Assembly: GCA_027491115.1 (NCBI GenBank)
Contig: JAIXWV010000041.1
Coordinates: forward strand, 7,274 to 71,273
Origin: Pseudomonadota bacterium
Lineage (GTDB): Bacteria > Bdellovibrionota > UBA1018 > CAIMNF01
Length of the DNA: 64,000 nucleotides
Reading direction: 5' to 3'
Shown: positions 1 through 34,452 of the stretch, in pieces
Numbering within the stretch: position 1 is the stretch's first letter
How the letters are laid out: the number at the start of each line of letters is the position of its first letter
Translations under genes and position numbers: made by a program
Notes under the pieces: model-generated
The model's database searches: none
Seen by the model: the letters and a program-made list of their open reading frames with translations, nothing else
Told to the model about the DNA's origin: nothing

Positions 1-930
1 CCCCTGCTCCTTTGAGAAATAGAGCGCCTGGTCAGCATGCTCGAGAACCTCTTCGAAAGTGTGGCCACAAGCCGGAAAAGAAGACACACCAACGCTCACC
101 GTCACTTTTCCAAGGGGCTGGAACTCGCCGAAGGGGAACACGGTTTGCTCGATCCGGGAACGGATCACTTCCGCCTGAAGCTTGGTTTCCTGGATGTCGG
201 AATTGCGACAAAGCACCACAAACTCCTCACCACCGTAACGTGCCGGCAGATCCTGGGAGCGCACACAGTCCTGAAGCGTCCTGGCCACGATCCGGAGAAC
301 ATCGTCACCGGCGGGATGTCCGTTCCGGTCATTGAATTTTTTGAAATGGTCGACATCGATGAAGATCACCCCGTAGTGCCCCTGAAAGGATATCGCTTGA
401 TGGTGAACTGACGCCAGCACCTCCTTGAAGTACCGGTAGTTCTTGAGACGGGTCATTTCATCCGTGGTGGAGAGTGTAGTGAGAACCGCATTCAATTCGA
501 GAAGCTCGCGCTCGGCACGCTTCTCGGCAGTGATGTCGCGTGCGATGAACTGGATCACCTCGATGTAATCGAGGATCTTCAGCTTCTCAGCCGTGACTTC
601 GAAGGTGTATTCATTCCCCTTCTCGTCGTGGTAAACGAGTTCTGTCCCGGGGAAAGCATCCTTGAGTTTGCTGTTCAGAAACTCTTCCGCTTTGAAAACC
701 CTCGGAAGCTCGGTCCCGAGCACCTGGGATTCATTCAGAGCCAGCAACTTCAAGGCAGCCTCGTTGCACTCGAGGACCCGATAAGAATGCCGGTCGATCA
801 AAAAGACAGCTTCAGCCATCCGGTGAAACAGGTCGGAGTAATTGGCGAGCTGAGAGAGCGTTCCCCCGACCATGCGGCCCTCGAAGAGCTCGTGCAACAT
901 GTCTTTTTTTGCCGAAGAAGAATCGCCCAT
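1..930 (-). CDS. PAS-GGDEF diguanylate cyclase, C-terminally truncated by the window edge (ATG near 930; not in the ORF track because it runs off the window)
   Basis: Manual minus-strand translation gives ...YGVIFIDVDHFKKFNDRNGHPAGDDVL...RYGGEEFVVL...VSVGVSSFP...ADQALYFSKEQG, the classic GGDEF motifs. The N-terminal third has PAS-like content. Confidence 0.8.
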   Translation of the reverse strand, partial: MGDSSSAKKDMLHELFEGRMVGGTLSQLANYSDLFHRMAEAVFLIDRHSYRVLECNEAALKLLALNESQVLGTELPRVFKAEEFLNSKLKDAFPGTELVYHDEKGNEYTFEVTAEKLKILDYIEVIQFIARDITAEKRAERELLELNAVLTTLSTTDEMTRLKNYRYFKEVLASVHHQAISFQGHYGVIFIDVDHFKKFNDRNGHPAGDDVLRIVARTLQDCVRSQDLPARYGGEEFVVLCRNSDIQETKLQAEVIRSRIEQTVFPFGEFQPLGKVTVSVGVSSFPACGHTFEEVLEHADQALYFSKEQG

Positions 931-1047
931 ACAGGTCTTATCGGCAATAGCGTCAAAAAATTGAGTTTTTTCCTGAGATCGAACCCCCCTCCTAACAACA
1001 TGAAATGACACCAAAATCCTTCCCGGATCCCTCTTCCATGCTATCCT

Positions 1048-2109
1048 GTGGATGGGATGAAGTTCACGACCCGTCACACCTTGCTGCCTGCGACTCTGCT
1101 GGTCTTATTGATCCAGGGGGGTGCTGTCGTTGTCGGGGCCCCCTCCGCCCGAGCGGAATCTTGCTTCACGCGTTTTTTCTCATCGATTTTTGGAAAGAAA
1201 GAGGCCACTCCCGACCCCATTCTCGGACTCGCTCCAGGATCCCGTGTCGGCTTTTCTTCGAAAGGCGCACGAGTCGAGGGGGAAGTGATCACCCACTCGT
1301 TTGAGGAGATCAAGATCCGGGGAGATGACGGCAAAGAGTACCGCTTCAAATCGAAACGAGCGGGCGAGCTCACCGAATTGACCGCTCCTACGGACCGGGG
1401 TTCAGTGGCCTACCGGTTGTGGGAACTCCGGAAGAAAACACGATTGAGCGAACAGTCGGACCTCTGGCCGGAAATCCGGTCCTCAGTTCAAAACGAGGTG
1501 GAACAGGTCCGTCTCATGAGCAAGGCCGAACGTCAGACCTACCTCGAGCGTGTCGGAGATGAAGTGGTCGGCAAGCTCAAACAGAAATACGGCCACGAGG
1601 AGTTCGGTTTTCACTTCAATCTTCACGGAGGGATCCTCGAGGAGTACGTCGATCGCGGTGGAATCATGATCTCGCGCGGTGACATCGCACTGAACTACGG
1701 CGGCGGAGATCCGAATTACAAAGTTTATTTTTTCCGCTCATCCAATGTCAGTCTTTATCGCTTGCTCAGCGAAGGAAACCCTCAACTCTATGGGGGCGGA
1801 CGCATGGGTCATGTGATCATGGCCTTTCCTTACGACTCCGATTACATCCGGAAAGGGATGAAAGAGAAAGGAATCCTGAGGCCGAGCACGATCTCTCTGG
1901 ATTTCGACGAGGAGTGGGTCCGTAAACAGGAAGTTTCCCGCCACACGGGGAGCGGTGTCGGGATTCCTGCCACCGAGTTCGTGGCTCCCCCGGCACAGGT
2001 TTTCGTGGGACTGAGGGGAAAGGTCGGAATGGGTGGCCTGAGCCGGGATGAGGAAACCCTGGCGACCATGCGTTATCTCGAACACTTCTGGTCTACCTAC
2101 GGTCGCTGA
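1048..2109 (+). CDS. Secreted hypothetical protein (signal peptide; alternative ATG at 1057)
   Basis: The N-terminus (MKFTTRHTLLPATLLVLLIQGGAVVVGAPSARA) has a hydrophobic signal-peptide-like core. No recognisable domain. GC3-rich coding. Confidence 0.55.
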   Translation: MDGMKFTTRHTLLPATLLVLLIQGGAVVVGAPSARAESCFTRFFSSIFGKKEATPDPILGLAPGSRVGFSSKGARVEGEVITHSFEEIKIRGDDGKEYRFKSKRAGELTELTAPTDRGSVAYRLWELRKKTRLSEQSDLWPEIRSSVQNEVEQVRLMSKAERQTYLERVGDEVVGKLKQKYGHEEFGFHFNLHGGILEEYVDRGGIMISRGDIALNYGGGDPNYKVYFFRSSNVSLYRLLSEGNPQLYGGGRMGHVIMAFPYDSDYIRKGMKEKGILRPSTISLDFDEEWVRKQEVSRHTGSGVGIPATEFVAPPAQVFVGLRGKVGMGGLSRDEETLATMRYLEHFWSTYGR

Positions 2110-2129
2110 TATCGACGCTGATATCAGCG
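2104..2129. terminator. Perfect palindrome (gctgatatcagc core within cgctgatatc...gatatcagcg) between convergent genes; possible bidirectional terminator but without a strong T-run
   Basis: The inverted repeat was read directly. It sits between the stop of the 1048..2109 gene and the stop of the motB-like gene. Confidence 0.35.
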
Positions 2130-2717
2130 CATTTCGATATGAATCTCGACTCTCTCCGCACTCGCGGCAACGCCGGCTCCCAGACGGATCTTCAGGCGAC
2201 GGAATCCGGGGAAATTCCTCTCGAGATGGTCGACGAGCCAGGACGCACGCTCCGTGGCCAATCGGTAATCACCCAACTGGGTGAAGACTGAAACCCCTTG
2301 GCTTTCGTCCCGATCCTCTTTGAAGCCTTCGATCCGGACCTGAAGTGAGGGTCCGAGTTCAGGGAGAAGTGTTTCCGCCAAGCCGTCGATCAGCGGCAAC
2401 CAGCCCTCTGAAATGGAAGACGATTGCCCCTCGTACAGTTCATCGCTTTCAATAGAGATCACAATGCGGTGAGCGGTCCGCCAGAGACGAACCCCGTCGA
2501 CTTTTGTCCTGAACCACTCACTCTCCTGTAAATGTTTGTGCAAGACCTGGAGTGCATGCGGGCTTTCAACTTCCACTCGGGGAAGTAGTGTCGCTGAAGG
2601 TGTGGTAGTCACGTCCTTCACCGGGACTTGAAGTCTCGATGCAAAAAGACCGAGCGCGAGGACGGCCAATCCCTGATAAACCGAGACGAGGTTCCCGCGA
2701 CTCAAGCGTCGGCCCAT
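2124..2717 (-). CDS. MotB-like stator subunit (single TM plus degenerate OmpA-like peptidoglycan-binding domain)
   Basis: The C-terminal region (VRIEGFKEDRD...DYRLATERASWLVDHL...RLKIRLGAG) resembles the OmpA/MotB C-domain. The ATG at 2717 overlaps the motA-like stop (ATGGGCCGACGCTTGA), suggesting translational coupling. The TM segment (LVSVYQGLAVLALGLF) lacks the conserved Asp. Confidence 0.6.
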   Translation of the reverse strand: MGRRLSRGNLVSVYQGLAVLALGLFASRLQVPVKDVTTTPSATLLPRVEVESPHALQVLHKHLQESEWFRTKVDGVRLWRTAHRIVISIESDELYEGQSSSISEGWLPLIDGLAETLLPELGPSLQVRIEGFKEDRDESQGVSVFTQLGDYRLATERASWLVDHLERNFPGFRRLKIRLGAGVAASAERVEIHIEMR

Positions 2718-3442
2718 CTCGGATTCACCAAAACCTTCGACCGCAGACGGTCTCCCACCAATTCGACATTCACGCCGTCCTGGATGCATGTCAGCCCTTC
2801 TTCCAGGAGTTCGAAATGGGCCCGGGCTTCTTCACGCAAGGATTCAAATCGACCACCGAAGGCGGCCTCCAGGATCAATTGGACAAACAACATGAGCCCG
2901 AAAGGAATGAAAGCGAGACCGAACCCGGTCGCCTCGTTCGAGGTCCGCATCAAAAGAGATCCGAGCAAAACCAGGGTCGGTACCAAACCCACCAGCGGAA
3001 TCAATCCGACAAAACGACTGAAATAATCACGATTCACTTCGATGATCCGGAAACGCGTCTCGCACTGGGATCGAACCAGAGGAAGCAGTGCGGATTTTTC
3101 ATGCCCGTCCATCACCTTCTTCATGAGGTGTCTGAGAAAAGGATCCTTCAGGTCTTTTCGTCGGGATTCGAGCGCCAGGAGCCCTTCTTGGCGTACGATG
3201 CGAGCCAAAGCCTCAAGCTCCCGGATCATCGCCTCCGGATTGAGACTGTAAGGAGCTCCCATTTGCGACCAAGACTCGGGGCCCCAACCCTCCGGAGCTG
3301 CAAGACAGTAAACCGCCCCGAGCCCGCTGGCCAAGGTCAACACCAATACGACTCCGAAAGACAGTCCGGGACCGAAACTCTCGAGTTGAAACGAAAACCC
3401 CGCATACAGCACCATGAGGAAAACGCCGAGCCCCTTGATCAT
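2702..3442 (-). CDS. MotA/PomA-like proton-channel stator subunit (4 TM: 2 TM, large cytoplasmic loop, 2 TM, with Pro in TM3 and TM4)
   Basis: The topology and the P-containing TM3 (GLIPLVGLVPTLVLL) and TM4 (AFIPFGLMLF) match the MotA/TolQ/ExbB family. Confidence 0.7.
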   Translation of the reverse strand: MIKGLGVFLMVLYAGFSFQLESFGPGLSFGVVLVLTLASGLGAVYCLAAPEGWGPESWSQMGAPYSLNPEAMIRELEALARIVRQEGLLALESRRKDLKDPFLRHLMKKVMDGHEKSALLPLVRSQCETRFRIIEVNRDYFSRFVGLIPLVGLVPTLVLLGSLLMRTSNEATGFGLAFIPFGLMLFVQLILEAAFGGRFESLREEARAHFELLEEGLTCIQDGVNVELVGDRLRSKVLVNPRWADA

Positions 3443-3472
3443 TCTTCCTCCTAGTGTACCCTATCTCTCAGC

Positions 3473-4513
3473 ATGATCATCAAAAAACCCTTGATTTTGG
3501 GCATGGCGCTCACCGGAATGATTGTCGGCACCGTCCTGATGACGGCACGGACACCTTTCGAAAAAGGATTGGCCACCGAGTGGATCGAAAACACCTTCCC
3601 GCAAAATCCCGATGAAGAGAGTCTCTTGCCCTTTGGGTATACGATCGGGATCTGGCCTGCACAATTCGAAGGTGACCCGATCGTCACACGCTTGACATAC
3701 CAAAAAGGACCGCCCACCCAATTCATCAGCAGCCTGGTTCAGATCTGGAAACCGATCGAAGTTGAGCTTACCCTTCACGGACCGAGGACGCTGGTCGCGA
3801 ATCAGACTGCAGAAGCGTGGCGTAGTTGTTTCCAATCGGGCTTCTCGTGCAAAGAACAGAAGGCCAAATTCAAACAGCTCTTATTCCCGGATGAAGCCGA
3901 CCACGGGAAACATCAGAAAGTTGTGACCTGGTTCGACGGTCTGGATCCTTGGAGTGCTAGAGGTGTACACCTGTTTATCCAAACCGAAACCTATCGAATC
4001 GACCGCTATGCGGTGATCACACCGGCCGGGGCTGTTCAGCTCTTTTCCTTGAAGACCGCGTCAAATCCAGTGGGAGACGCCGGCCGGGCCCTGTTTCAGA
4101 AGACCCTGGCCTCCATGAAAGTGAAAGACGATCTCCCGAGCAACCGCGCCTGGATTCAGAATCGGATCAAAACAGTGAACTTGAAGGATGTCCGAGCCCT
4201 TCCCGATCAGAAGACGCGTTTGGAACGCCTCATCCGTGTCCAGAACTGGATTTTTTCCAATCTGTCGGTCGACCCATCACAACTGCCCTCTTTTTTTCAT
4301 TTGGCCGGTACGACGCACCTTCTGGCGATGGAGCTTCTGAAAACCAAGGAGCGAATTTTCGAAAACCAGGAAGCGTGGATCCTGGGAGTCATGCCTCTGA
4401 TGAAATCCCTCATATCTTACGCACAGGATTTCAAGGACAGTGAGCCCGAAGTGAAAAACATGGAGGCGCTCCTGCAAGACATTCTCGTCGAACAGAAGCG
4501 CCTCTCGCGCTGA
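3473..4513 (+). CDS. Membrane-anchored hypothetical protein
   Basis: N-terminal TM (LILGMALTGMIVGTVLM), 346 aa, no recognisable domain. Divergent from motA-like. Confidence 0.5.
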   Translation: MIIKKPLILGMALTGMIVGTVLMTARTPFEKGLATEWIENTFPQNPDEESLLPFGYTIGIWPAQFEGDPIVTRLTYQKGPPTQFISSLVQIWKPIEVELTLHGPRTLVANQTAEAWRSCFQSGFSCKEQKAKFKQLLFPDEADHGKHQKVVTWFDGLDPWSARGVHLFIQTETYRIDRYAVITPAGAVQLFSLKTASNPVGDAGRALFQKTLASMKVKDDLPSNRAWIQNRIKTVNLKDVRALPDQKTRLERLIRVQNWIFSNLSVDPSQLPSFFHLAGTTHLLAMELLKTKERIFENQEAWILGVMPLMKSLISYAQDFKDSEPEVKNMEALLQDILVEQKRLSR

Positions 4514-5510: not shown

Positions 5511-6389
5511 TTATTCGCGGATGTCAAGTGCACCTGACCGCCCGCTCCACAAAGCGACCCAGAAACCGCCTAAACCCGCTCCAGTCAGCTTTACAGCCAG
5601 CGCGCCCTGCTTCAATAGTTCATGCTTTTGACCAATCAAATCGGGGGTCAGCAATCCCCAGGTCTCAAAACAGTTCTGTGCGTCTTGCATCGCGCGGGCG
5701 ATCCGATCCTCTCCTCGGGACGAATCCTTTTGGAACTCAAACAGCCCCTCTTTGGCAAGGCGGGTCGCTTGATCCATTTTTTGATCGAAGCGATCCGCCA
5801 GATGCGGATGAATCTGACGCCAATGCTTCACCTTCTCGACACAGTCCAAGGTCTGACCCCTCAGTCCGGAATCATAAAGCTCAAAACGAGGTAGACGGTC
5901 GAGTCCAACTAATGGTCGGGCTCCTTCGTCCATAGAAAACTCTATCGGACGGCCGTGGGCGATGGCGTGCACATCCATGCCACTGCTCTTCCCATGAAAC
6001 ACATCTTCGAGATGGGTCGAGAGTGGAATCCAGGAAGATTCATCCGTTCCGGTTCTCCAGATCACCAAGCGAGCGATCGCTGTACAGAGAGCTGCTGAGG
6101 ATCCGAGACCGGCGCCGATCGGGATGTGACTCTGTATGTCAACCTCGCCTGAATCGAAGAAGCGAGAATCTTGACCAAGCCACTCGAGCGCTCGACCAAT
6201 CAGACTCCGAACCACCGACTGGAACGGATTCGCCGTGATCGAGAAATCCTTCTTCTTGCGATAGACCAACTTCAAAGAAAACCTGGGATGAGGAAAAGCA
6301 ATGGCCTGCTTACCCCGAAGAACCGCATGCTCTCCGGTCAATACCCACTTGGCTGGTACCTCGATGGTAAAATCAGAAATCCGAGTCAT
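5511..6389 (-). CDS. mvk: Mevalonate kinase (GHMP kinase)
   Basis: N-terminal VPAKWVLTGEHAVLRG and the GHMP ATP motif PIGAGLGSSAA. Overlaps the MVD stop. Confidence 0.75.
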   Translation of the reverse strand: MTRISDFTIEVPAKWVLTGEHAVLRGKQAIAFPHPRFSLKLVYRKKKDFSITANPFQSVVRSLIGRALEWLGQDSRFFDSGEVDIQSHIPIGAGLGSSAALCTAIARLVIWRTGTDESSWIPLSTHLEDVFHGKSSGMDVHAIAHGRPIEFSMDEGARPLVGLDRLPRFELYDSGLRGQTLDCVEKVKHWRQIHPHLADRFDQKMDQATRLAKEGLFEFQKDSSRGEDRIARAMQDAQNCFETWGLLTPDLIGQKHELLKQGALAVKLTGAGLGGFWVALWSGRSGALDIRE

Positions 6390-7401
6390 CGAACCTGGCT
6401 CCTTTCCCGCTCACATCCCTGATTGTCTTCAAACCAGGATGGAGTCTAGAAAAATACTGTTCCCACTGTGGTGCCTCTATCGATGGAACAAACAGATGGG
6501 CATTGGCTCCAGCATCGAAAGTGAGGACAGCATGATCGCTGGGCAATTCGGCATTGCGGTTCCGAATCCGATCGATCCAAGCCTCGCTCTCCGAGTTCCA
6601 ATAACGGAATCCGGGTACGCTCGAATGAAACAAATCATGCATGTCGATCGCCTCATCCAGCACAAGCGTAGAGAGCGCGAATCCATGCGGACCCTTCAGG
6701 AGACGACGGAGTTCGGACAATCTGGTTTTCACCCGTTCCTCACGACCACTGAAGAGAGGCGAGGTCCGGACACGTTCGTGGGCCTCGCTCGATGAAACCG
6801 CTTTTTCTTCCGTCTCGAGCAACAAGATAAAATCCGTGTATTCACCTTCCGGTCTCCACTCAGTGATCCCGGTCTCAGGATCCCACTCGACAAAAGGACC
6901 ACCGAACGAGCGGCAGGAACTTCCGGAACCCTTTGCCGACACGGCGGCAAGTGACTTCCGGAGCGCAGGATCTTTCTCGAAACACTCACGGAATCGACTG
7001 AGCTCCCGACCACACAGCACCCCGGCCCAAGCCAAGGTCAGTGCCGCGAATCCGGAAGCACTGGTGGCGATGCCGGTTCCAGCGGGAACCGTGTTCCGCG
7101 TGAGAATCTCATAAACACCGGGACGGGCGTTCACTTCGAACCCGAAAGGCTCGAGGGCAGAACGGAATGATCCGACATCGGACAGAAATGCCTTGGCCTT
7201 GGCAAGACCCGTGGCAGGCGGAACATAACCCTGGTCGGAAAACCGGAATTCCAACCGGTCCGCATCACCAACCTGTGCGATGCGGGTGTGGGTCCCGGAG
7301 CGGGAAAGGGTCATCGACAGGGAAGAATTTGAGGGCTTCCCGGCGTTCTTACCCATGTACTTGATCCAAGCGATATTCACCGGAGCAAAAACGCTCACCA
7401 T
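6373..7401 (-). CDS. mvaD: Diphosphomevalonate decarboxylase
   Basis: N-terminal APVNIAWIKYMGK...SLSMTL matches the MVD signature. ATG at 7401 lies just after the PMK stop (the track GTG is at 7407). Confidence 0.85.
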   Translation of the reverse strand: MVSVFAPVNIAWIKYMGKNAGKPSNSSLSMTLSRSGTHTRIAQVGDADRLEFRFSDQGYVPPATGLAKAKAFLSDVGSFRSALEPFGFEVNARPGVYEILTRNTVPAGTGIATSASGFAALTLAWAGVLCGRELSRFRECFEKDPALRKSLAAVSAKGSGSSCRSFGGPFVEWDPETGITEWRPEGEYTDFILLLETEEKAVSSSEAHERVRTSPLFSGREERVKTRLSELRRLLKGPHGFALSTLVLDEAIDMHDLFHSSVPGFRYWNSESEAWIDRIRNRNAELPSDHAVLTFDAGANAHLFVPSIEAPQWEQYFSRLHPGLKTIRDVSGKGARFDDSDF

Positions 7402-8261
7402 ACACACTCCGAAAGCCTTCCGCGGACGCGTAGCCCCGTCTGCTGCACCGATGAACTCACGGAAGCCAGACTCACTCCCGGCTTCAGCACCATCAAGAAC
7501 TGGTCATGAAGCCCTGCCCCGCAGCCCTTCACGCCTTCCACTTGATCCAAGGTCTGCAGAGCCTCACGGATCTGGCGGGCATTTTCCGTCTCACGTCCGG
7601 TCAGGGCCAACTCCTCGGCGTACTCTCCCAGCACCCGAAACCCGCCCTCATCCGGATCCAAAAGCTGATTCCGGAAACGCTTCACCAGAGAACTCAAAAC
7701 ATCGAAACGAACGGGCGCACGATCCAGTGCCAGATCTTCATGGGTCGGGCGCTTGGACGGTGTGCTTCGTTCCAACAGGACCATTCTTTCGTAAACGAGG
7801 GGGATACTCTGGGTTCTTGGACGACCGGTCTTTCTGGCCTGAAGGAGCAGATCCGCTCCACTCGCTAAAGGCACATTCCGCCGGTACCACAAATGGATCT
7901 CCTCCGGATCAGGCCACACACCGTGAACCTGTTTCCAAGCCATCAAACACTCTGCGGTCGAACCGCCAAAACCTGGCGGAGCTGAATTCTCGAGCAAACG
8001 GAACCGGGAGACTCGTGCCCCTGCCTCGGCAAGCAGCCGACCCGCCGGAGACTCTGGATGAAGGACTGATCCCTCGATATCGTCACCGAACTCGAAACGA
8101 TAACCGGGACGGATCGCTTCCAGTACAGCATCTCCACCCTCGAGGACCAGGTACTCACCGATCAGGAAGATCTTTGCCGGGATATCAATGATCTCCAAGT
8201 CCGCCTCACCCGACCGAGCCTTCGAGCTTGAGCTCGAGCAGACGGTTCGCCTCAAGCGCAA
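7395..8261 (-). CDS. Phosphomevalonate kinase (ERG8-type GHMP kinase)
   Basis: [16 protein letters not shown] near the N-terminus and the GHMP motif GFGGSTAE. The true start is probably internal to the track ORF. Confidence 0.7.
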
Positions 8262-9630
8262 ACTCCATCGGTAACTGCTTGAACACTTCGTCGCAATACC
8301 CGTTGATAATGAGCTTCACGGCTTCTTCGGCCTCGATGCCCCGGGACTGAAGATAGAAGAGCTGATCCTCGCTCACTTTGGATGCGGTCGCCTCGTGCTC
8401 CACAATGGCGGTCGGATTCCTCACCTCGATGTAGGGGATCGTGTTTGCTGTGCACTTCGCACCGATCAACAGGGAATCACACTGGGTGTGGTTCCTCGCA
8501 CCCTCAGCACTCGGCAGAACGACCACCCCGCCCCTGTAGGTGTTCCGACCCTCTCCGGTCGAAATCCCCTTTGAGAGGATCCGACTCTTGGTGTTCTTCC
8601 CGATGTGGATCATCTTGGTGCCCGTATCGGCCTGCATCTTCTCGTTGGTGATGGCGACCGAATAGAACTCACCCGTTGAACCCTCGCCCTCAAGAACGCA
8701 AGAAGGATACTTCCAGGTTACTGAAGATCCGACCTCAACCTGCGTCCAGGAGATCTTCGAGTTCCGACCCTTACACAAACCCCGCTTGGTCACAAAATTG
8801 TAGATTCCGCCCTTGCCCTCGGCATCACCCGAGTACCAGTTCTGGACCGTGGTGTATTTGATCACGGCTCCCTCGAGGGCCACGAGCTCCACAGTCGCAG
8901 CATGAAGCTGGTTCTCGTCCCGCATGGGTGCCGTACAACCTTCCATGTAGCTCACTTCCGAGCCTTCTTCTGCGACGATGAGGGTACGTTCGAATTGGCC
9001 GGTTCCTTGAGCGTTGATCCTGAAGTAAGTCGAAAGATCGAGCGGACACTTCACACCCTTAGGAATGAAAACAAACGAGCCGTCACTGAACACAGCGGCA
9101 TTGAGAGCGGCATAGTAATTGTCCGTGGCAGGAACCACAGAACCCAGGTACTTCCGCACCAGTTCCGGATGCTCTTTCAAAGCCTCTGAAATGGAGCAAA
9201 AAATGATCCCGTGCTTCTTCAGTTCCTCGCGTTGGGTGGTGACCACCGACACCGAATCGAACACTGCATCGACCGCGACTCCGGCCAACATCTTCTGCTC
9301 GTGAAGGGGAATGCCGAGCTTTTCGTAGGTCTCGAGTAGCTTCGGATCGACCTCGTCAAGGCTGTTCAGTTTCTTCTTCTGTTTGGGGGCTGAATAGTAG
9401 CTGATCGACTGGAAATCGATTTCTGGATAGGTCACGTCCGCCCACTTCGGCTCCTTCATTTTCTGCCAAATGCGGAATGCCTTGAGCCGGTACTCGAGCA
9501 TGAACTCGGGTTCTTCTTTCTTGGCCGAAATGAAGCGTACGGTATCCTCGCTCAGACCCGGAGGGAGGCGGTCCTCCTCGATGTCGGTCACGAATCCGTA
9601 TTTGGAATAATCCTTGTTCTGAAAATCCAT
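8206..9630 (-). CDS. sufB: Fe-S cluster assembly protein SufB
   Basis: Length 474 aa. The conserved SufB family sequence is recognised throughout. Confidence 0.95.
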
Positions 9631-9634
9631 AATT

Positions 9635-9940
9635 TCACCAGATCCCCAAGCGGTCTTTCACTTCGTCAGAAGCCATGGTCTTCGGATCCCACTTCGGCTC
9701 GAACACCAACTTCACTTCCGCTTCCACCATCCCCGGATACTCGAGGAGGCGGTTCTTCACATTCGCCACAAAGGTGTCAGCCACGGGACAGTGCGGGCTG
9801 GTGAGGGTCATCACCACATCCGCACCGGTCTTCTCGGGCCGGAAATTCGCTTCATAGATCAGACCGAGATCGACGATGGACAGGAACATCTCCGGGTCTT
9901 GAACCGGATGCAACCATTCCAGGAGTACGGGGTCACGCAT
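9635..9940 (-). CDS. sufT: DUF59/MIP18-family Fe-S assembly protein (SufT-like)
   Basis: [17 protein letters not shown]...SPHCP...[11 protein letters not shown] is the DUF59 pattern. Start inferred at the internal ATG (9940) overlapping the sufU stop. Confidence 0.7.
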
Positions 9941-10373
9941 GGTGGGTCTCCAATCCTTTTTTGAGTGTGGTCCAAGGAAGCAAAGCGCACTTGATCCGGA
10001 CCGGGAACCGTTTGATGCCGTAAAGAGCCACAATATCTTCGGAAGAGTCGTCTGCTGGAAGGACATCCGGCCGATCCTCACCCTGCATCTTGGCCCGAAA
10101 ACCTTCGATCAATCCTGAAACTTTGGACAGCGGCTGCCCCTGAACCATCTCAGTCATGATACTGGCCGAGGCCATACAAATCGAGCACCCCTCGCCCTCG
10201 AAGGTGCAGCTCTCGAGTTGTCCGTCGCGGAATTTCAAACCGAGGGTGACCTTGTCACCACACAGCGGATTGAACCCATTCTCACGAACTTGTGAGTCCG
10301 ACGCTAACCCCCAGTTTCGGGGCGATTCATGATGGTCCGCCAAAACCTCTCCGAAGACGTCACGGTAGTTCAA
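9933..10373 (-). CDS. sufU: SufU/IscU-like sulfur acceptor
   Basis: Motifs NPLCGD, CSICMASAS, and C-terminal KCALLPW. Confidence 0.8.
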   Translation of the reverse strand: MNYRDVFGEVLADHHESPRNWGLASDSQVRENGFNPLCGDKVTLGLKFRDGQLESCTFEGEGCSICMASASIMTEMVQGQPLSKVSGLIEGFRAKMQGEDRPDVLPADDSSEDIVALYGIKRFPVRIKCALLPWTTLKKGLETHHA

Positions 10374-11608
10374 GCGTTCTTCCTCCTGAAGAATTGAGGG
10401 GCGTTCATCAAGGCTTCGATGAGCTGATCGGCTTCCTCGAGAGTGTTGTAGAAACTGAAGCTCGCACGGCAGGTCGCAGGCAAGCCGAGACGGAGCATGA
10501 GCGGATGGGCACAGTGGTGACCGGCTCGAACCGAAATCCCCCGCATGTCAAGGAAGGTCGCGAGATCGTGAGCATGGACACCGTCGATCGCCACACTGAA
10601 AATCGGCGCGCGATGGTGCGGATCCTTGGGCCCGAGCAACCTCAATCCCGGAATGGCCACAATGCGCTCGAGCACATATGCAGTGATCCGATCCTCATAT
10701 TCCTGGATCCGGGTCCGCCCCTGGGTCTCGATGTAATCGATCGCTGCACCGAGCCCGATCACGCCTGCGATATCGGGGGTGCCGGCTTCGAACTTATGGG
10801 GAAGCTCGTTCCATTCGGAATCTAAATCCCCCACGTGAGTGATCATGTTCCCGCCCACCTGGTACGGGGGCATGCGGGACAGTACCGATTCTCGACCCCA
10901 AAGGACCCCGACCCCGGTCGGTCCACAGAGTTTGTGAGCCGAGAACGCGAGGAAATCGATCGGACCGAGACGCGAGAGTTCGACCTCACCGTGAGCGATT
11001 CCTTGAGCGGCGTCGACCACGATTGTCGTCCCGACCATTTTGAATCGTGAGGCGAGCGAGGCCACGGGATTGGTCACCCCGGTGACATTGCTGAGCAGGG
11101 AAACGGCTAGGATCTTCGGTTTCAATGCGAGAACCCGATCCACTTCCTTGGGATCGAGTCGGAGATCCGAAGTCAATTCAATGATCTCGAAACGGGCGCC
11201 TTTGCGCTTGGCGAGCTGCTGCCAAGGGACGAAATTCGCATGGTGCTCCATCCGGGTCACTGCGATCACATCGGCCGCACCGACATTGCTCTCACCGAAG
11301 GAAGAGGCAATGAGGTTGATCGCCTCAGTGGTCCCTTTGGTGAACACGATCTCTCGCTCGGAAGCGGCACCCAGAAAGCGGACCACCTTGCTCCGGACCG
11401 ATTCGAACGCATCCGTGGCTTCCTGGGAGAGCTTGTAGACCCCTCGGTGAACATTGGCGTTGGTTTCGAGGTAATACCGCACGATCGCATCCACCACTTT
11501 TTTGGGACGCTGGGAGGTCGCCGCGTTGTCGAGGTAGCACAAGGGCTTCCCTTCAACCATTCTTCCGAGAATGGGAAAATCGCGCCGGATCAGCTCGTTC
11601 ATGACCAC
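10370..11608 (-). CDS. sufS: Cysteine desulfurase SufS (class II aminotransferase V)
   Basis: Family similarity across 412 aa. Sits inside the suf operon. Confidence 0.9.
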   Translation of the reverse strand: MVMNELIRRDFPILGRMVEGKPLCYLDNAATSQRPKKVVDAIVRYYLETNANVHRGVYKLSQEATDAFESVRSKVVRFLGAASEREIVFTKGTTEAINLIASSFGESNVGAADVIAVTRMEHHANFVPWQQLAKRKGARFEIIELTSDLRLDPKEVDRVLALKPKILAVSLLSNVTGVTNPVASLASRFKMVGTTIVVDAAQGIAHGEVELSRLGPIDFLAFSAHKLCGPTGVGVLWGRESVLSRMPPYQVGGNMITHVGDLDSEWNELPHKFEAGTPDIAGVIGLGAAIDYIETQGRTRIQEYEDRITAYVLERIVAIPGLRLLGPKDPHHRAPIFSVAIDGVHAHDLATFLDMRGISVRAGHHCAHPLMLRLGLPATCRASFSFYNTLEEADQLIEALMNAPQFFRRKNA

Positions 11609-12402
11609 TCCTCTTCGAGCACACCGAGGCGGGACTCGATCTCACGGCGGATCGAAACATCCGAGATCCACTCGAGCGGTTGACGCAGGAATCCCCTTAA
11701 CATCATCGACTCCGCGGTTTCCCGATCGATACCTCTCGTTTGGAGGTAATACGTTTGCTCCGGCTCGAGCGAACTCGTGCTACTCCCGTGAGCACATTTC
11801 ACTTCGTCGTTCTCGATGAGAAGCTTCGGAAAGGAGTCAACCGTCGCACGCTTCGAAAGCATCAGGTTCCGGTTCTTCTGGAAGGCCTCGGTTCGAGGAG
11901 CCGACTGCTGAATGTGGATCCTGCCATTGAAAACCGTACGGGAATCGTCCCGGGCCGCACACCAGACCTGGAGATCACTGTAAGTATCGGAAACGGAATG
12001 GACGGCGTCAGCACGAATCGAGAATTGCTGATTTGACTTGGCATTCAATAGTCCACGGAGCTCAATACGGGCCCCGCGACCCTCAACTGAGGTGTCGATC
12101 TCGAATGCCGACTTGGCCCCACCGTCGAGGATGACGGTCAGTTGGAGGGTGCTGTTGGCTCCGGCTTTCACTCTGACACGGGAGAGGGACTCGACTTCGG
12201 CAGAAGTGCCCTGCTCGATCACCATCTCGACACGGGCTCCCTCATCGAGGGCGATGTCGATTTCATGCACTCCACCGTTGTTTGGAATCCGGTAGTGCAG
12301 AACGCCGGAGGCTTGACTCCGACCGGCGACAGCTTCCACCACATGGCGACTGCCGGGTCCCGGTATGGCGTCTTTTGATTTGAAGATCTGGTGTTCTTTC
12401 AT
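11599..12402 (-). CDS. sufD: Fe-S assembly protein SufD
   Basis: The beta-helix region is similar to SufB/SufD. Position is between sufC and sufS. Confidence 0.8.
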   Translation of the reverse strand: MKEHQIFKSKDAIPGPGSRHVVEAVAGRSQASGVLHYRIPNNGGVHEIDIALDEGARVEMVIEQGTSAEVESLSRVRVKAGANSTLQLTVILDGGAKSAFEIDTSVEGRGARIELRGLLNAKSNQQFSIRADAVHSVSDTYSDLQVWCAARDDSRTVFNGRIHIQQSAPRTEAFQKNRNLMLSKRATVDSFPKLLIENDEVKCAHGSSTSSLEPEQTYYLQTRGIDRETAESMMLRGFLRQPLEWISDVSIRREIESRLGVLEEEWS

Positions 12403-12408
12403 GACAGA

Positions 12409-13152
12409 TCAGGCGCCTTCCACCCAGTCATAGCCACGCTCTTCGAGCTTCAATGCCAGTTCAGGCCCCCCGCTCTCGAGCACCCGGCCGCTTCCAAACA
12501 CATGGACAACGTCGGGTTTGATGTAATTCAGCATCCGTTGGTAATGCGTGATCACGAGCATCCCGCGGTCCGTGTTCCGGAACGACTGAAGATTCTCAGA
12601 AACGATCCGGAGGGCGTCGATGTCGAGACCGGAGTCGGTCTCGTCGAGAACGGCCATCTTGGGTTGAAGCAATCGAAGTTGGAGAGTCTCAAGGCGCTTC
12701 TTTTCGCCCCCGCTGAATCCCTCGTTCAAGGAACGGGTCATGAAGGCTTCCGGAATGGAGAGGTGCTTCAGTTCTTCCTTGATTAGTGAACGGAACTTGG
12801 ACGGCTCGATCTCGCCGGCACGGACGGACTTCATCGAAGCTCGAAGGAAAGACGCTACGCTGACCCCCGGGATCGCAACCGGATACTGGAACGCGAGGAA
12901 CAGGCGTTTCTTGGCGCGTTCTTCGGGCTTCAAATTCGTGATGTCCTCACCATCGAGTAGGATGCTACCGGAGAGCACCTGGTACTTGGGGTGTCCCATC
13001 AGGGTGTAAGAAAGGGTGGTCTTGCCTGTCCCGTTCCGACCCATGATTGCGTGCACTTCACCCCGACGCACCACGAGGTTAACGCCTTTTAGAACTTCTT
13101 TTCCTTCCACGGCGACGTGGAGGTCCCGGATCTCGAACAATGGTGCACTCAT
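12409..13152 (-). CDS. sufC: Fe-S assembly ATPase SufC
   Basis: Walker A GRNGTGKTTL, ABC signature, 247 aa. Confidence 0.95.
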   Translation of the reverse strand: MSAPLFEIRDLHVAVEGKEVLKGVNLVVRRGEVHAIMGRNGTGKTTLSYTLMGHPKYQVLSGSILLDGEDITNLKPEERAKKRLFLAFQYPVAIPGVSVASFLRASMKSVRAGEIEPSKFRSLIKEELKHLSIPEAFMTRSLNEGFSGGEKKRLETLQLRLLQPKMAVLDETDSGLDIDALRIVSENLQSFRNTDRGMLVITHYQRMLNYIKPDVVHVFGSGRVLESGGPELALKLEERGYDWVEGA

Positions 13153-13643
13153 GATCTCAGCTCCCTGTTTCTCATTTGCCCGACATGATCACTCGCGATC
13201 GAGCTGGTTTTGTCACGGATCTCTTCCTCGGGCCGGATGAGGTCGGCCAAGGTCATCCTCGAGGTGAATTCTTCTACATATCCGGAGAGCAGATCCCAAA
13301 ACGGACGGATCGAACAGGATCCGAAGCGTACGCAGGCCTCTGACTTTCCGGTGAAAGACTTACAAAATTCCGAGCCCGCCTTCTTCCTTCCATTCAGCGC
13401 ATCGAGGACCTCTTTCAATGAGATCTCGGCAGGTTGTCTGGAGAGGGCAAAGCCTCCTTTGATGCCACGAACGGTGCGGACGAGCTCGGCACGCTTCAAC
13501 AACAGCATGAACTTTGAGACGTACTCGATTGAAAGTCCCTCGCGCTCGGCGATATCCGGAGCGGACAAGGTCTTTCCTTCGGGCAAAGAAGCGAGCTGGA
13601 CCGCACAACGCAGTCCGTATTCTTCCAAGGCGGTGACGTTCAT
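13149..13643 (-). CDS. iscR: Rrf2-family transcriptional regulator, IscR/SufR-like with a 3-Cys cluster
   Basis: N-terminal Rrf2 HTH (GLRCAVQLASLP...LSAPDIAEREGLSIEYVSKFM) and a Cys cluster CKSFTGKSEACVRFGSCS. First gene of the suf operon. Confidence 0.8.
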   Translation of the reverse strand: MNVTALEEYGLRCAVQLASLPEGKTLSAPDIAEREGLSIEYVSKFMLLLKRAELVRTVRGIKGGFALSRQPAEISLKEVLDALNGRKKAGSEFCKSFTGKSEACVRFGSCSIRPFWDLLSGYVEEFTSRMTLADLIRPEEEIRDKTSSIASDHVGQMRNRELRS

Positions 13644-22939: not shown

Positions 22940-23470
22940 ATGAAAATCATTAAAAATCTGTCTTTGGGACTCATTCTGGCCTGCCTTGCTTCAGCCTGTG
23001 GCGCACGCCCCCAGTTCGCAGACCGCTTTGACGGATACTCCAACTCCTGGGGTCCTTCAAATTCCGGACAGTACATGTCGGCCGACCTCCAGTGCTCCGA
23101 AACCCCGAATATCATCAGCTCGACCGGTCAAGCTTCCCAGGAATACCGCGCCTGCAGGAATGAGTCGTCATCGACCTCGATCCGTCTTTTCCCCGCCGAC
23201 GGCGCCCTTCGTACGGTTTGCGTCTACCCTACCCTCGGAGGTCGTGGAATCGTGGCAAATCCCTACGGGACGATCTATACCCGTTACGCAGTCCAATGCA
23301 TGAACGTCAATTCCGACGGTGCACAAATCAATTTCGGATCGCTCCAATTCGACGGCATCCAGGTCGTCCGAGCGGCAGACGCACCGGTCATGTCCTATTG
23401 CCTGGCCTACGGCAATGTCTCGACCTGTGCATCCCAGTCATCGCTCCAGTACGCGAACGGCAGCCTTTAA
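22940..23470 (+). CDS. Cys-rich lipoprotein, hypothetical
   Basis: Strong RBS GAGAGGGAG before the ATG at 22940, lipobox ILACLASAC. The upstream part of the track ORF has no RBS. Confidence 0.55.
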   Translation: MKIIKNLSLGLILACLASACGARPQFADRFDGYSNSWGPSNSGQYMSADLQCSETPNIISSTGQASQEYRACRNESSSTSIRLFPADGALRTVCVYPTLGGRGIVANPYGTIYTRYAVQCMNVNSDGAQINFGSLQFDGIQVVRAADAPVMSYCLAYGNVSTCASQSSLQYANGSL

Positions 23471-24429
23471 TGGATGTTCCTTCGGACCTTCTCGGGCAGG
23501 AGGTTTTCTCCCTCTTCAGCACGACTTTCCGAACCTGAGCTTCCGAGGACTTCCTTTTTCCCGTGTCGGCACATCCCGACAAGTTCAGGATCCCGGGTTG
23601 GGAACACATCGATGATCTCGATCTGCGTCTCGTCCGCGGTGTCTTTGGCGATTACGACATACCAATACGGCTCGTCGTGGTCGTAATGCTTGATGAAGTG
23701 GTAAACTCGCTTGGCCGACTTCGGCTGATAGCTCCAGAGCTCATTCGGCTTTTGCAAGGTTTCCTCGAGACACTTCTGGTAAAAGCCGAAATCCTCGGGG
23801 GGTATGTCTTGGACCTTACGGGACCGGACAATCATGGCTCGAACCGAGTCCGCCTCAGTCCAGGGTTCTGCGAGCCGATCGGAGCCCTGCTGCTCATCCC
23901 GCGCAAGCTCGGTCACGCCTTCTTCTTCAGGAGCTTCGATTCGCGATCCTTCCTTCACAACCTTCATCTGGTCGCCTCGACGGAAAACATCCACGAGATT
24001 GCGATCAGAACTTACGAATGCGAGAAAAAGAAAACTCGGCTCACCTCTCAACATCAAACAGACCGCCACAGCCCAGACCTTCTTACTCTCCGGCATGTAT
24101 TCCGCGATCAGGGTGTAACGGCGATCTCCCCTTGGGAGCGTTTCCATCCAGACTTCTTCGGGATTCTCGAGCGCCATCCATCTGAAATGCGCATATCGCT
24201 CGCGTTCCTCAGCACTCAGATCCTGGGGGGCCACATGCTTTCCATACTCCCTTTCGAGTTTCTCGATCTCGGGAGTGAAGTGACTGACAATGCAACCTTC
24301 ATCGCAAAAGTACCGACCGACTTCTTCCTCGACAAAAAGAGCCTGATCCCTTTGGGAAATGACTTTTTTGCATTCTTCACAATGTACTTTTGCCGATTTT
24401 TTAGCCGAACCGCGCGGTTTTGAACTCAT
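23467..24429 (-). CDS. Hypothetical protein with N-terminal zinc-ribbon (CxxC...CxxxC) and an internal duplicated module of about 60 aa
   Basis: CEECKK...CDEGC near the N-terminus. Two similar modules: EEVWMETLP..RRYTLIAEY...WAVAVC...LVDVFRRG and NELWSYQPK..RVYHFIKHY...WYVVIA...LVGMCRHG. The plus-strand ORF 23563..24423 is F/L-rich antisense junk. Confidence 0.5.
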   Translation of the reverse strand: MSSKPRGSAKKSAKVHCEECKKVISQRDQALFVEEEVGRYFCDEGCIVSHFTPEIEKLEREYGKHVAPQDLSAEERERYAHFRWMALENPEEVWMETLPRGDRRYTLIAEYMPESKKVWAVAVCLMLRGEPSFLFLAFVSSDRNLVDVFRRGDQMKVVKEGSRIEAPEEEGVTELARDEQQGSDRLAEPWTEADSVRAMIVRSRKVQDIPPEDFGFYQKCLEETLQKPNELWSYQPKSAKRVYHFIKHYDHDEPYWYVVIAKDTADETQIEIIDVFPTRDPELVGMCRHGKKEVLGSSGSESRAEEGENLLPEKVRRNIH

Positions 24430-27518: not shown

Positions 27519-28460
27519 TCAACGGTTGAAATGGTGTTGGGTGTGGATGTACCGGATGGTTCCGGTCTCCGAGCGCATCACCACCGAATGGCTCTCGGCC
27601 CCACCTTTGAAAAAGCGGATCCCGTTCAAAAAAGTCCCCTGGGTCACGCCTGTTGCGCAGAACATGACATTTCCTTTGGCCAGGTCGTGAATCCCGTAAA
27701 CCTTACGCAAATCATCAATACCCATCCGCGTGGCCCTAGCCCGTTCGGCATCATCTTTGAACACCAATCGACCGATGAAATCCCCACCCCGGCACCGAAG
27801 TGCGGCTGCAGCGATCACTCCTTCAGGGGCCCCACCGGTTCCGAACAAAACATCGACACCACTGGTTGGTTCTGTGGTGGCGATGGCGGCCGAGACATCC
27901 CCGTCACCGATGAGCCAGATCCTGGCACCAGCCATACGGACTTCCTTGATGAGCTCCTCGTGACGAGGACGATCGAGAATGATGGCCGTCAGATCCGACA
28001 CCGAACATTTCTTGGCACGGGCAATTTCTTTCAGATTTTCGGTGGGCGTCCGGTTGAGGTCAATCGCACCCTTTGCCTCGGGCCCAACAGCGATCTTCTC
28101 CATGTAACAATCGGGGGCATGAAGAAAATTCCCCTCCTCGGCGATGGCAATGACCGAAATTGAATTATTGAGCCCCTTGGCACAAATGGTGGTGCCCTCG
28201 AGGGGATCCAGAGCCAAATCCAACCGGACCGATCCGCCCTTGCCGACCTTCTCGCCGATATAGAGCATGGGTGCTTCGTCCCGTTCGCCCTCGCCGATGA
28301 CAACACGTCCGTCGAACTCGACCGAGTTGAGCGCATTCCTCATGGCATCTACAGCAGCCTGATCGGCGAGCTTCTCGTCTCCGCGCCCCATCAAACGCGC
28401 ACTCGAAAGTGCGGCCGCTTCAGTCACTCGAACAAATTCCAAAGCGAAGTTACGATTCAT
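27519..28460 (-). CDS. glpX: Fructose-1,6-bisphosphatase class II
   Basis: Whole-length GlpX similarity (…LYIGEKVGKGG…LIGDGDVSAAI…). Confidence 0.9.
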   Translation of the reverse strand: MNRNFALEFVRVTEAAALSSARLMGRGDEKLADQAAVDAMRNALNSVEFDGRVVIGEGERDEAPMLYIGEKVGKGGSVRLDLALDPLEGTTICAKGLNNSISVIAIAEEGNFLHAPDCYMEKIAVGPEAKGAIDLNRTPTENLKEIARAKKCSVSDLTAIILDRPRHEELIKEVRMAGARIWLIGDGDVSAAIATTEPTSGVDVLFGTGGAPEGVIAAAALRCRGGDFIGRLVFKDDAERARATRMGIDDLRKVYGIHDLAKGNVMFCATGVTQGTFLNGIRFFKGGAESHSVVMRSETGTIRYIHTQHHFNR

Positions 28461-29155
28461 TAAAGGGATCCTCCTACCAAATGGGAAAGCATCCGCTGAC
28501 GATGGGCCTCATCCGCAAACGGGGCGCTCTCGACTAACCCGATGGCCGTTTCGATCAAGGTCCTGTCCTCGACAGGGTGATACTCGATGAGACGGGTTTC
28601 GAGACGGACGATTCCATGCGCGTAACCTCCGTCATCTTCGGCGACGGCTTGTCCGGTCCGGATCCCGTCGTCACTTTCCCACTGTACGAAACTGTGATGG
28701 ACGTACAGAGTCCAGCGATTGAGCGTCCGACCCTGGTCCTCCCCGTCACGGAAATAAAGCAACAGATCCACTCCCACCGGATTGTGATACCAATCCGTTC
28801 CGGCAAAATCAGGGAGCTCGTACTTCCTGAGACTTTCGCCGAGCTTGACCGGATGGGAAATCGCCTCCAAGTGGGCTCGCAACTCGGGGCTGAGATCGAT
28901 CCACTCTCCTCCGACCAAGGTCCCCCGGATGTATTTCACTTCAAACCGGCAAGAAAGCTTCCGCCCCTCCACCTTCACCGTTCCAGGTTGTTGACTGGCT
29001 ACCGTGAAATGGGCGAGGTCTTCTTTTTCACTCAGGCGGATGGCCAAACCTCCGAGAGAAATGTCCTGGACCGGGTAGTTCCGGGACCGGGAATCAGAAT
29101 GAAACTGGCAAGGCGAGATGTGGAAACGGGGAAGCTTGCGCTTTTCGTGACTCAT
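28460..29155 (-). CDS. PilZ-domain protein (putative c-di-GMP receptor)
   Basis: RKLPRF (RxxxR) and DISLGGLAI (DxSxxG) motifs near the N-terminus. Start set at the internal ATG to avoid overlap with the divergent pgsA. Confidence 0.55.
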   Translation of the reverse strand: MSHEKRKLPRFHISPCQFHSDSRSRNYPVQDISLGGLAIRLSEKEDLAHFTVASQQPGTVKVEGRKLSCRFEVKYIRGTLVGGEWIDLSPELRAHLEAISHPVKLGESLRKYELPDFAGTDWYHNPVGVDLLLYFRDGEDQGRTLNRWTLYVHHSFVQWESDDGIRTGQAVAEDDGGYAHGIVRLETRLIEYHPVEDRTLIETAIGLVESAPFADEAHRQRMLSHLVGGSL

Positions 29156-29243
29156 AGGTTTGAGCAGAAGAATAACCTGAAAATTCAGTGGATTGCAAAT
29201 AAGGCTTTTACAAAGAACGGGGTGCGTTGCACACTCGGAAGGC

Positions 29244-29903
29244 ATGGAAAACCGGCACGAGCCCTTCGATCAGATGACCTTCCATACCACACCGAACTAC
29301 CTGACCCTGCTCCGAGTCCTGTTTGTTCCGGCGGTCATCATTTCGCTGTATCAGGGCACCCCGCTTTGGGACTTTCTCGGAGCAGTTTTCTTTGGTCTTG
29401 CCGGCATCACGGACTACTTTGACGGGTACCTCGCCCGGAAACACAAAATCGAGACCGTTTACGGAAAACTCCTCGATCCCTTGGCTGACAAGTTCCTGGT
29501 CATTTGCTCCTTCATCATGCTCCAGCATCTCGGAAGAATGAGCCCAATCGTGGTGATGTTGCTGGTTTGTCGCGAACTCACGATCACAGGGCTCCGTGCC
29601 CTAGCAAGCGCTGAAGGGGTGATCGTCGCGGCATCTCAAGGAGGCAAGTGGAAAACGGCGACGCAGATGTCGGCCATCCCGTGCCTCATGCTCGACCATG
29701 CGCTCGGATTCCCTTTTCTTACCATCGGGATGTGGCTGACCTACCTCTCGCTCGGACTGTCTCTCTGGAGCGCAAAGGACTACATCGTCGAATTTTTCAG
29801 GGGACTCAAGCGGGCAACCGAGCTCAGGAAACAAAAACGCCTAGAAAGGCGAGCCGCCAAAATCAGGAAAAAAGAAGCAAAAAGAACCCGCAACCCGTCC
29901 TGA
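29244..29903 (+). CDS. pgsA: CDP-diacylglycerol--glycerol-3-phosphate 3-phosphatidyltransferase
   Basis: CDP-alcohol phosphatidyltransferase motif DGYLARKHK...GKLLDPLADK. RBS GGAAGG before the ATG. Confidence 0.8.
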   Translation: MENRHEPFDQMTFHTTPNYLTLLRVLFVPAVIISLYQGTPLWDFLGAVFFGLAGITDYFDGYLARKHKIETVYGKLLDPLADKFLVICSFIMLQHLGRMSPIVVMLLVCRELTITGLRALASAEGVIVAASQGGKWKTATQMSAIPCLMLDHALGFPFLTIGMWLTYLSLGLSLWSAKDYIVEFFRGLKRATELRKQKRLERRAAKIRKKEAKRTRNPS

Positions 29904-33981: not shown

Positions 33982-34452
33982 ATGCTCAAAATGCTCACCG
34001 GCTTGACCCTGTGGCTCCTCCTGTTCGCTCTCTATCCACTCTCCACACGCGCTCAGGTTCACGGGAGCGGAGGAGGACCGGATCGACCCAGCAATCAGGA
34101 AGCGATGTGCACCGAGCTTCGCGACCGGTCTCGTGACCTGGAAAAAGATTACCTAGATTCGAGAAAAATCCGCTACGAAAACGACCAAAGTTTCTTTGAC
34201 GAAATAAAACGTCTCGCAGCAAAAAGTATATTCAAAGCGATCAGTAAACCATCCTGGGCGCAAACTTCCTGTGGGAGTGCGCCGGTTCCCGTTCACACCC
34301 CGGATCAAATCAAGCTCCTTCATCGGATTGAGCAACTTTGGGTACAAGGGGTCGAATCACCACAATACTGCCTAGGACGTTTCAAGTCCCGTGCCAGAAA
34401 CATTGATGCTCTAAAATGTGTGATCCAATCGCTGTCTCATGAGTCAAAATGA
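33982..34452 (+). CDS. Small secreted hypothetical protein
   Basis: Signal peptide LTLWLLLFALYPLSTRA, 4 Cys. Confidence 0.45.
   Translation: MLKMLTGLTLWLLLFALYPLSTRAQVHGSGGGPDRPSNQEAMCTELRDRSRDLEKDYLDSRKIRYENDQSFFDEIKRLAAKSIFKAISKPSWAQTSCGSAPVPVHTPDQIKLLHRIEQLWVQGVESPQYCLGRFKSRARNIDALKCVIQSLSHESK

Follow-up and report, generated by a model that had tools for sequence, protein, structure and literature searches.

The gene pair described here, A-B, lies in a 64-kb window (64,000 nucleotides (nt), positions 7,274 to 71,273 of contig JAIXWV010000041.1, assembly GCA_027491115.1) from a Pseudomonadota bacterium of the Bdellovibrionota, and encodes diverged relatives of the flagellar stator proteins MotA and MotB in which Gly appears to stand in place of the membrane Asp of MotB. 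We tentatively interpret A-B as a lineage-restricted, flagellar-type pseudo-stator that is fixed to the cell wall, does not conduct ions and faces a presumed partner. An acidic residue in a transmembrane (TM) helix is required by all characterised MotAB-like motors (PMC9389320; PMC8986121), this acid being Asp in MotB, ExbD, TolR and AglQ/S and Glu49 in GldL (PMC9389320; PMC8986121). The MotB-type Asp is treated as universal, and A-B stands for a family that descends from flagellar stators, exists in nature under selection and has neither this Asp nor a plug. The literature searched yielded no account of a MotB that lacks the Asp and is paired with a MotA.

The A gene (2702..3442, minus strand) encodes a 246-amino-acid (aa) protein of a diverged MotA/PomA type with 2+2 TM helices, as assigned from its open reading frame (ORF), NCBIfam matches, a family profile and hydropathy. 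The B gene (2124..2717, minus strand) encodes 197 aa plus stop, in which a short cytoplasmic tail and a TM helix are followed by a linker predicted to be disordered and then by an OmpA-like domain. A preliminary description of the stretch had proposed a translationally coupled MotA/MotB-type pair, with a MotB-like subunit that lacks the ion-binding Asp and carries an altered G-H-T-D motif, and each of these proposals was sustained: by profile homology for A and the OmpA-like fold of B, by a 16-nt overlap of the two genes, by a helix that reads YQGL in a protein with no Asp or Glu before residue 35, and by the replacement of Asp by Glu134 in G131-F-K-E134.

B possesses one hydrophobic segment, at about residues 8-26 by hydropathy, and hence a single N-terminal TM helix, which we assign to residues 8-27 (2637..2696, minus strand). 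The N-terminus of the protein is MGRRLSRGNLVSVYQGLAVLALGLFASRL, including V-Y14-Q15-G16-L17, and its first acidic residue is D35. For that reason no alignment can place an Asp or Glu in the helix; B lacks the TM Asp of MotB (D32 in E. coli), and an acid elsewhere in the helix, which would have undone the claim of the preliminary description, does not occur. The G16 codon (2670-2672, minus strand) occupies the MotB Asp position as judged by helix position. When the B family was compared with E. coli MotB by hhalign, the C-domain aligned and the TM segment did not, so the probable equivalence of B Y14-Q-G16-L to MotB Y30-A-D32-F rests on helix position. The family motif of the helix is [VI]-[YF]-x-G-L-[FA], extended across relatives to [VI]-[YF]-x-G-L-[FA]...L-[YF]-A, in which G16 is invariant (34/34 relatives). 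No Asp or Glu was found in the cytoplasmic half of the helix among about 45 relatives. As far as the alignments of both proteins can tell, there is no membrane carboxylate conserved across the family in either subunit.

The position of the N-terminus depends on the choice of start codon. The longest ORF for B runs from 2789 to 2124 (minus strand), and public gene calls begin B at ATG 2717. An upstream start at ATG 2789 was rejected, its 24-codon extension being unconserved and interrupted by in-frame stops in the related locus L002, and the ATG itself being absent from the related loci L001 and L003. ATG 2717 is the real B start, which settles in favour of the preliminary description the start codon that fixes its reading of the N-terminus; even if used, the upstream extension would add cytoplasmic residues only. 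The 16-nt overlap (2702..2717, minus strand) was read directly from the sequence, with the B ATG at 2717-2715 and the A TGA at 2704-2702, and points to translational coupling; in more distant relatives the two genes share a 4-nt ATGA overlap. The ATG of the A gene is preceded, at a distance of 5 nt, by AGGAGG. Because both flanking genes are on the opposite strand, A-B forms a self-contained two-gene operon. A promoter and terminator scan of 1900-3900 gave nothing usable.

The TM helix is the most conserved part of B: its mean entropy is 1.5 bits, whereas the OmpA domain has 2.35 and the linker 3.12. Such conservation favours a specific contact between helices over a signal peptide that could be dispensed with. 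The rival idea is that B is a secreted periplasmic OmpA-like protein with a cleaved signal peptide, consisting of a basic n-region, an h-region of about 16 residues and L-[YF]-A before a polar residue, and is no TM partner of A at all. Such an idea draws on a hydrophobic stretch that is short (17-19 residues, Kyte-Doolittle value 1.55) and that ends in small residues (FAS/YAA/YAN) resembling a signal-peptidase site, but the stretch is also where G16 and L24 are near-invariant at a mean identity of about 29%, a pattern at odds with the evolution of signal peptides, and in all loci B is translationally coupled to a MotA homologue. We consider a secreted B very improbable. The linker that follows the helix (residues 28-54) varies in length, is the most variable segment of the protein, and has a predicted local distance difference test (pLDDT) score below 50 with no helix; residues 1-51 are unstructured in the AlphaFold model. 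Since the segment after the TM helix is both the most variable and predicted to be disordered, B has no conserved plug.

The remainder of B (residues 55-197; 2127..2555, minus strand) was modelled by AlphaFold with a pLDDT mostly above 90. Foldseek searches of the PDB with this domain gave E (expectation) values of 6e-9 to 1e-6 for TssL, PomB, MotB and MotS, led by the TssL anchor 4b62 (6e-9) and the C-domain of PomB (3wpw, 4e-8), with MotB C-domain and MotS matches at about 1e-7; the MotB C-domains were those of Helicobacter and Salmonella, and PA0833 and the peptidoglycan (PG) domain of SiiA (6qvp) were further matches. In the hhalign comparison, G131-F-K-E134 of B falls on G-H-T-D of E. coli MotB, and L-A-T-E-R157-A falls on L-S-A-D-R-A, R157 being the Arg of L-[SA]-x-x-R-A. 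At the sequence level, Pfam gave no match for the B protein of the window, NCBIfam gave weak matches to TssL-type OmpA models (4e-4), and sequence matches in the PDB were non-significant. The Pfam OmpA model is matched directly by 13 of the 35 B family members, at best with an E value of 1.8e-9. In MotB, the Asp of G-H-T-D and the Arg of L-S-x-x-R-A form the dyad that binds PG. R157, the putative PG-binding Arg of B, is the only column that is invariant across all 35 B family sequences, and the Asp column of G-H-T-D holds Asp or Glu in 24/35, with Glu134 found in the window's clade. The C-domain of B is OmpA-like by its modelled fold, and is a predicted peptidoglycan anchor.

Relatives of B were sought by an exhaustive profile search with a hidden Markov model among 1.84 billion representative proteins (E <= 1e-3). 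The search returned 42 relatives, nearly all 170-215 aa in length, with a few fragments and one protein of 2,235 aa. The carriers are metagenome-assembled genomes (MAGs) of Bdellovibrionota, labelled Bdellovibrio sp., Bdellovibrionales or Oligoflexia. Ratios of nonsynonymous to synonymous substitution (dN/dS), computed for the window together with three MAG loci related to it, with dS up to about 2 or more, were 0.055-0.11 for A and 0.05-0.10 for B. With dN/dS at 0.05-0.11, A and B are functional and under strong purifying selection; both ORFs are intact in every locus, and conservation of the pair extends to identities as low as about 20-25%. That A-B might be a decaying, functionless remnant of a stator operon is hardly credible. 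Its catalytic and ion-coupling residues are lost, and its scores fall below the MotA and Pfam cut-offs, as might be expected of such a remnant, but constraint of this strength at dS of about 2 or more, intact ORFs and family-specific invariant residues are not; the dN/dS values and the intact ORFs rule out a pseudogene.

Hydropathy places four hydrophobic stretches in the A protein (about 2-20, 28-49, 147-165 and 173-191), the second being parted from the third by a loop of some 95 residues. A thus displays the 2+2 TM arrangement in which a large cytoplasmic domain follows TM2 and precedes TM3. It matched the NCBIfam models for MotA, PomA and MotP with E values of 1e-10 to 3e-7 (MotA, 9.6e-11), the best score being 41 bits against a cut-off of 340 and therefore below the family threshold. 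The Pfam model MotA_ExbB (PF01618) scored 13.2 bits against a cut-off of 22.9, over residues 96-165 and ending after TM3; 7/10 of the A relatives match it weakly, at best with an E value of 0.0047. In the PDB, the only significant matches of a family profile built from ten relatives were MotA and PomA chains, over residues 25-234 with E values of 2e-16 to 8e-12, and at E <= 1 it matched no ExbB, TolQ, GldL or ZorA chain. On the strength of its sequence, A is clearly homologous to MotA/PomA, though it has diverged very far.

Individual residues of A were compared in an alignment of 15 family sequences with E. coli MotA (from NC_000913) and PomA. The numbering of the PomA sequence used was checked and is consistent. 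The cytoplasmic domain aligns with that of PomA free of long gaps. Its motif R84-x2-G-x-L-x2-E92 (3167..3193, minus strand) aligns with R90/E98 of E. coli MotA and R88/E96 of PomA, and R84 and E92 are invariant in all 15 A sequences, so the charged pair through which MotA contacts the rotor protein FliG is present in A as a putative rotor-contact pair. Also invariant in A are G87, L89, R95, K96, D100, K108 and G113, as well as P149, G152, L157, P180, Q188, G216 and G223. The TM3-TM4 region (residues 143-196; 2855..3016, minus strand) keeps P149 and G152 and carries P180 and Q188 in TM4 as family-specific residues. The preliminary description had noted Pro in both TM3 and TM4, and it is right for TM3, where the invariant P149 aligns with P173 of E. 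coli MotA and P151 of PomA, and is to be corrected for TM4, whose Pro does not lie at the canonical position: the column of E. coli P222 and PomA P199 contains no conserved Pro in the A family, and P180 aligns instead with T185/T186 of PomA, the Thr pair of the Na+ site being replaced by Pro-Phe. The rotor-facing cytoplasmic residues are kept and the Pro and Thr of TM4 are lost, from which it follows that the channel-lining part has been rebuilt and the cytoplasmic part is best preserved.

No conserved TM carboxylate was found in A, all columns with at least 80% Asp or Glu in the 15 sequences being cytoplasmic; a GldL-like compensating acid conserved in A was looked for and rejected on this account. 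E192 in TM4 is restricted to the window's own clade, and Gln, Asn, Thr or His occurs there in other clades. A compensating pair made of this E192 and the Glu that follows the B helix in some relatives was likewise discarded, because the related loci L013 and L015 have neither.

Since the loss of Asp is family-wide and has been kept under selection, a non-conducting variant is favoured, which is one of the two options that the preliminary description had offered. A-B would be a stator paralogue of the flagellar lineage, deprived of ion coupling since the ancestor of the family. A ring of A subunits around a B dimer tied to peptidoglycan would presumably still assemble, but without a protonatable site the ion-driven rotation cycle could not run, and A-B would for that reason act as a pseudo-stator: a static anchoring, placeholder or regulatory unit whose MotA-like cytoplasmic face is turned toward a partner. 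Of candidate partners, the flagellar rotor comes first to mind, with FliG as the presumed point of contact and A-B as a possible brake, placeholder or sensor. Complete genomes of Bdellovibrio and like organisms carry 1-4 motAB pairs, which normally stand alone, away from flagellar clusters (PMC11323537), so that missing flagellar neighbours are uninformative. Stator genes of Bdellovibrio influence lifestyle switching and levels of cyclic di-GMP (c-di-GMP) (PMC11323537), and a stator paralogue that generates no torque is therefore a plausible regulatory element.

Several points weigh against a pseudo-stator. The strong conservation of TM residues (G16, P149, G152, P180 and Q188) is what a working channel of unusual chemistry should show as well; E192 is located inside TM4 of A in the window's clade, and a Glu directly follows the helix in 14/35 B relatives, many of them distant. 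The conserved Arg/Glu pair of A could be structural rather than partner-binding. Moreover, neither flagellar genes nor a second motAB were found in the 64-kb window, the rest of which is housekeeping.

The first of these points would suit an ion-driven 5:2 rotary motor with a non-canonical coupling site, for which a water or ion site formed by the Gly16 backbone, Gln188, Thr/Ser156 and Tyr14, or clade-specific acids such as E192 are candidates. The TM helices are indeed the best-conserved membrane parts of the system, with P149, G152, P180 and Q188 invariant in A beside the 1.5 bits of the B helix, and E192, the post-helix Glu and the case of GldLM, where the B-type subunit does not carry the essential acid (PMC8986121), also speak for it. 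Against it, no ionisable TM residue is family-conserved in either subunit, E192 gives way to Gln, Asn, Thr or His outside the window's clade, L013 and L015 do without both E192 and the post-TM Glu, and Tyr14 is Phe in 6/34 relatives. The replacement of the Na+-site Thr of PomA by Pro-Phe and the absence of a plug that could gate a channel also speak against it. Such a motor, the main competing reading, in which the polar and helix-breaking residues G16, P149, P180 and Q188 would make up an unconventional coupling site, is in our judgement rather unlikely, and the narrower proposal, a 5:2 complex that still transduces energy or rotates by means of a new ion-coupling site formed by Gly16 of B and Pro180/Gln188 of A, is quite improbable.

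The surroundings of A-B are the same in all loci examined, down to B proteins that are about 20% identical: suf genes, mevalonate genes, HtpX, a hypothetical protein of 345-378 aa on the opposite strand, A, B, then a hypothetical or Metallophos protein on the opposite strand, PAS-GGDEF and def. The check on neighbourhood conservation that the preliminary description had called for thus returned the same chromosomal order in every locus, and A-B has the appearance of a core locus present once per genome and passed on vertically. The flanking synteny belongs to an extended run of housekeeping genes that is collinear throughout, and therefore says little about function.

The hypothetical protein next to A deserves separate consideration. 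In the window it is a lineage-specific 346-aa protein (3473..4513, plus strand), divergent from A, with a TM anchor, a beta domain like those of PsbP, DUF1795 and DcrB, and a TPR-like helical repeat. Neither Pfam nor NCBIfam assigned a family to this or the other gene flanking A-B. The gap between the 346-aa gene and A is 30 bp in the window and 28-119 bp across loci; at 30 bp, the promoters of the divergent genes must lie inside coding sequence. The protein was modelled with a pLDDT of 88, and its fold matches were weak and generic, being limited to the PsbP/DUF1795/DcrB-like and TPR-like folds already mentioned. Likeness to DUF1795 is also a feature of the SciW/Eag chaperones, which hold TM helices.

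This neighbour lies at the centre of another alternative, which we regard as unlikely, namely that A-B is a repurposed non-flagellar envelope module that works with the 346-aa protein and whose cytoplasmic face binds a partner other than FliG. The 346-aa gene adjoins A-B in all loci with enough sequence, including one in which three genes lie between it and HtpX, and thus even where nearby genes have been inserted; at dN/dS of 0.02-0.04 and 42-64% identity across the lineage, its product is more conserved than A or B; and the lack of any flagellar gene in the 64 kb agrees with a function outside the flagellum. On the other hand, gene order is shared along the entire block (suf, mevalonate, HtpX ... 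GGDEF, def), so that simple vertical synteny may account for the adjacency, the 346-aa gene and A-B are on opposite strands, and the fold matches of the neighbour are as generic as described. Stand-alone motAB pairs are, moreover, normal in this group (PMC11323537), and the MotA rotor-contact residues, that is, the equivalents of R90/E98, are invariant. These last two points also leave unsupported the step from non-flagellar neighbours to a non-flagellar function that was taken in the preliminary description. The 346-aa gene is an unproven candidate member of the system, and the non-conducting, flagellar-type unit is still the reading that we prefer.

On the other side of the pair, a 353-aa protein (1048-2109, plus strand) that matches no family and begins with a hydrophobic N-terminal segment is encoded convergently to B, across a gap of 14 bp. 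Its homologues are confined to the window's wider clade, and in deeper clades its slot is filled by a 596-702-aa protein resembling Metallophos and 5'-nucleotidase proteins. Beyond it, 1-1011 (minus strand) is cut by the window edge and, by synteny with the related locus L005, belongs to a PAS-GGDEF diguanylate cyclase gene; this gene is two genes away from A-B, an arrangement kept in all related loci. A PilZ-domain protein is encoded at 28460-29245 (minus strand).

Among the remaining genes of the window, 5511-8261 (minus strand) encodes mevalonate kinase, diphosphomevalonate decarboxylase and a third GHMP-like ORF, and adjoins a complete suf iron-sulfur (Fe-S) cluster operon with an Rrf2 regulator (8206-13643, minus strand). 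In some relatives (L013, L014 and L017) the decarboxylase is fused into a protein of 589-645 aa. A 320-aa protein with a PBECR2 domain, a phage nuclease domain of the Barnase/EndoU/colicin E5-D/RelE-like kind, is located amid housekeeping genes at 23467-24429 (minus strand) and may be a toxin module. ORFs of 404, 399, 281 and 715 aa at 31680-32894 (plus), 34439-35638 (plus), 35602-36447 (minus) and 36504-38651 (plus), respectively, gave no Pfam match at E <= 1e-3. Rfam recognised two tRNAs only in the window.

A-B retains a stator's rotor-facing charges together with its cell-wall anchor and the interface of the A and B helices, and in this sense is an experiment that nature has set up. Should it be inert, it would show that evolution can turn stator units into pseudo-stators that serve as anchors, placeholders or brakes, in the way that pseudoenzymes arise from enzymes. 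If it is active, a new coupling chemistry must be at work.

Compared with known systems, A-B resembles ExbBD, TolQR and AglRQS in being a two-gene A/B membrane pair, but the B subunits of those systems keep the Asp and are without an OmpA-like domain (PMC9389320; PMC12505986). An assignment to the ExbBD/TolQR type was rejected, as the A profile matches no such chain in the PDB and B is OmpA-like and Asp-less. The Zorya proteins ZorAB and Salmonella SiiAB offer another parallel, each having a MotB-like B subunit with a PG-binding domain encoded outside a flagellar cluster; A differs in lacking a long tail, and its genes lie in core-genome synteny and in no defence or pathogenicity island. ZorB and SiiA, furthermore, retain the essential Asp. 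Zorya or any other defence system was dismissed because PADLOC gave no match for A, B or either neighbour and the synteny is that of housekeeping genes.

GldLM and PorLM share with A-B a B-type subunit that has no TM Asp. GldL, however, contains a strictly conserved and essential TM Glu, E49 (PMC8986121), and A contains no conserved counterpart; nor is there a sequence relation between the systems, and GldM has a long periplasmic shaft, whereas B is a protein of 197 aa with an OmpA-like domain.

The closest relatives of A-B are the flagellar stators. A recent scheme separates flagellar from generic ion transporters and includes a PomA-like short-loop type, 'TGI4' (Puente-Lelievre et al. 2025, PMC12505986). 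In this scheme A-B comes nearest to the 'TGI4' type and bears flagellar-type traits, namely the MotA/PomA-like cytoplasmic domain of A and the OmpA-like domain of B, but has neither plug nor Asp. Unlike MotAB and PomAB, the B helix of the present family has Gly for Asp, its cytoplasmic tail measures only 3-12 residues, and no conserved plug follows; A is without the Thr pair and the canonical Pro of TM4 and has the invariant P180 and Q188 in their stead, the Asp of G-H-T-D is Glu in the window's clade, and the scores are far below curated cut-offs. Like MotAB and PomAB, on the other hand, A has four TM helices, the R..G.L..E motif, DG and IQDG-type motifs and the Pro-x2-Gly of TM3, B has an N-terminal TM helix, an OmpA-like domain and the Arg of LSxxRA, and the A gene comes first and overlaps the B gene.

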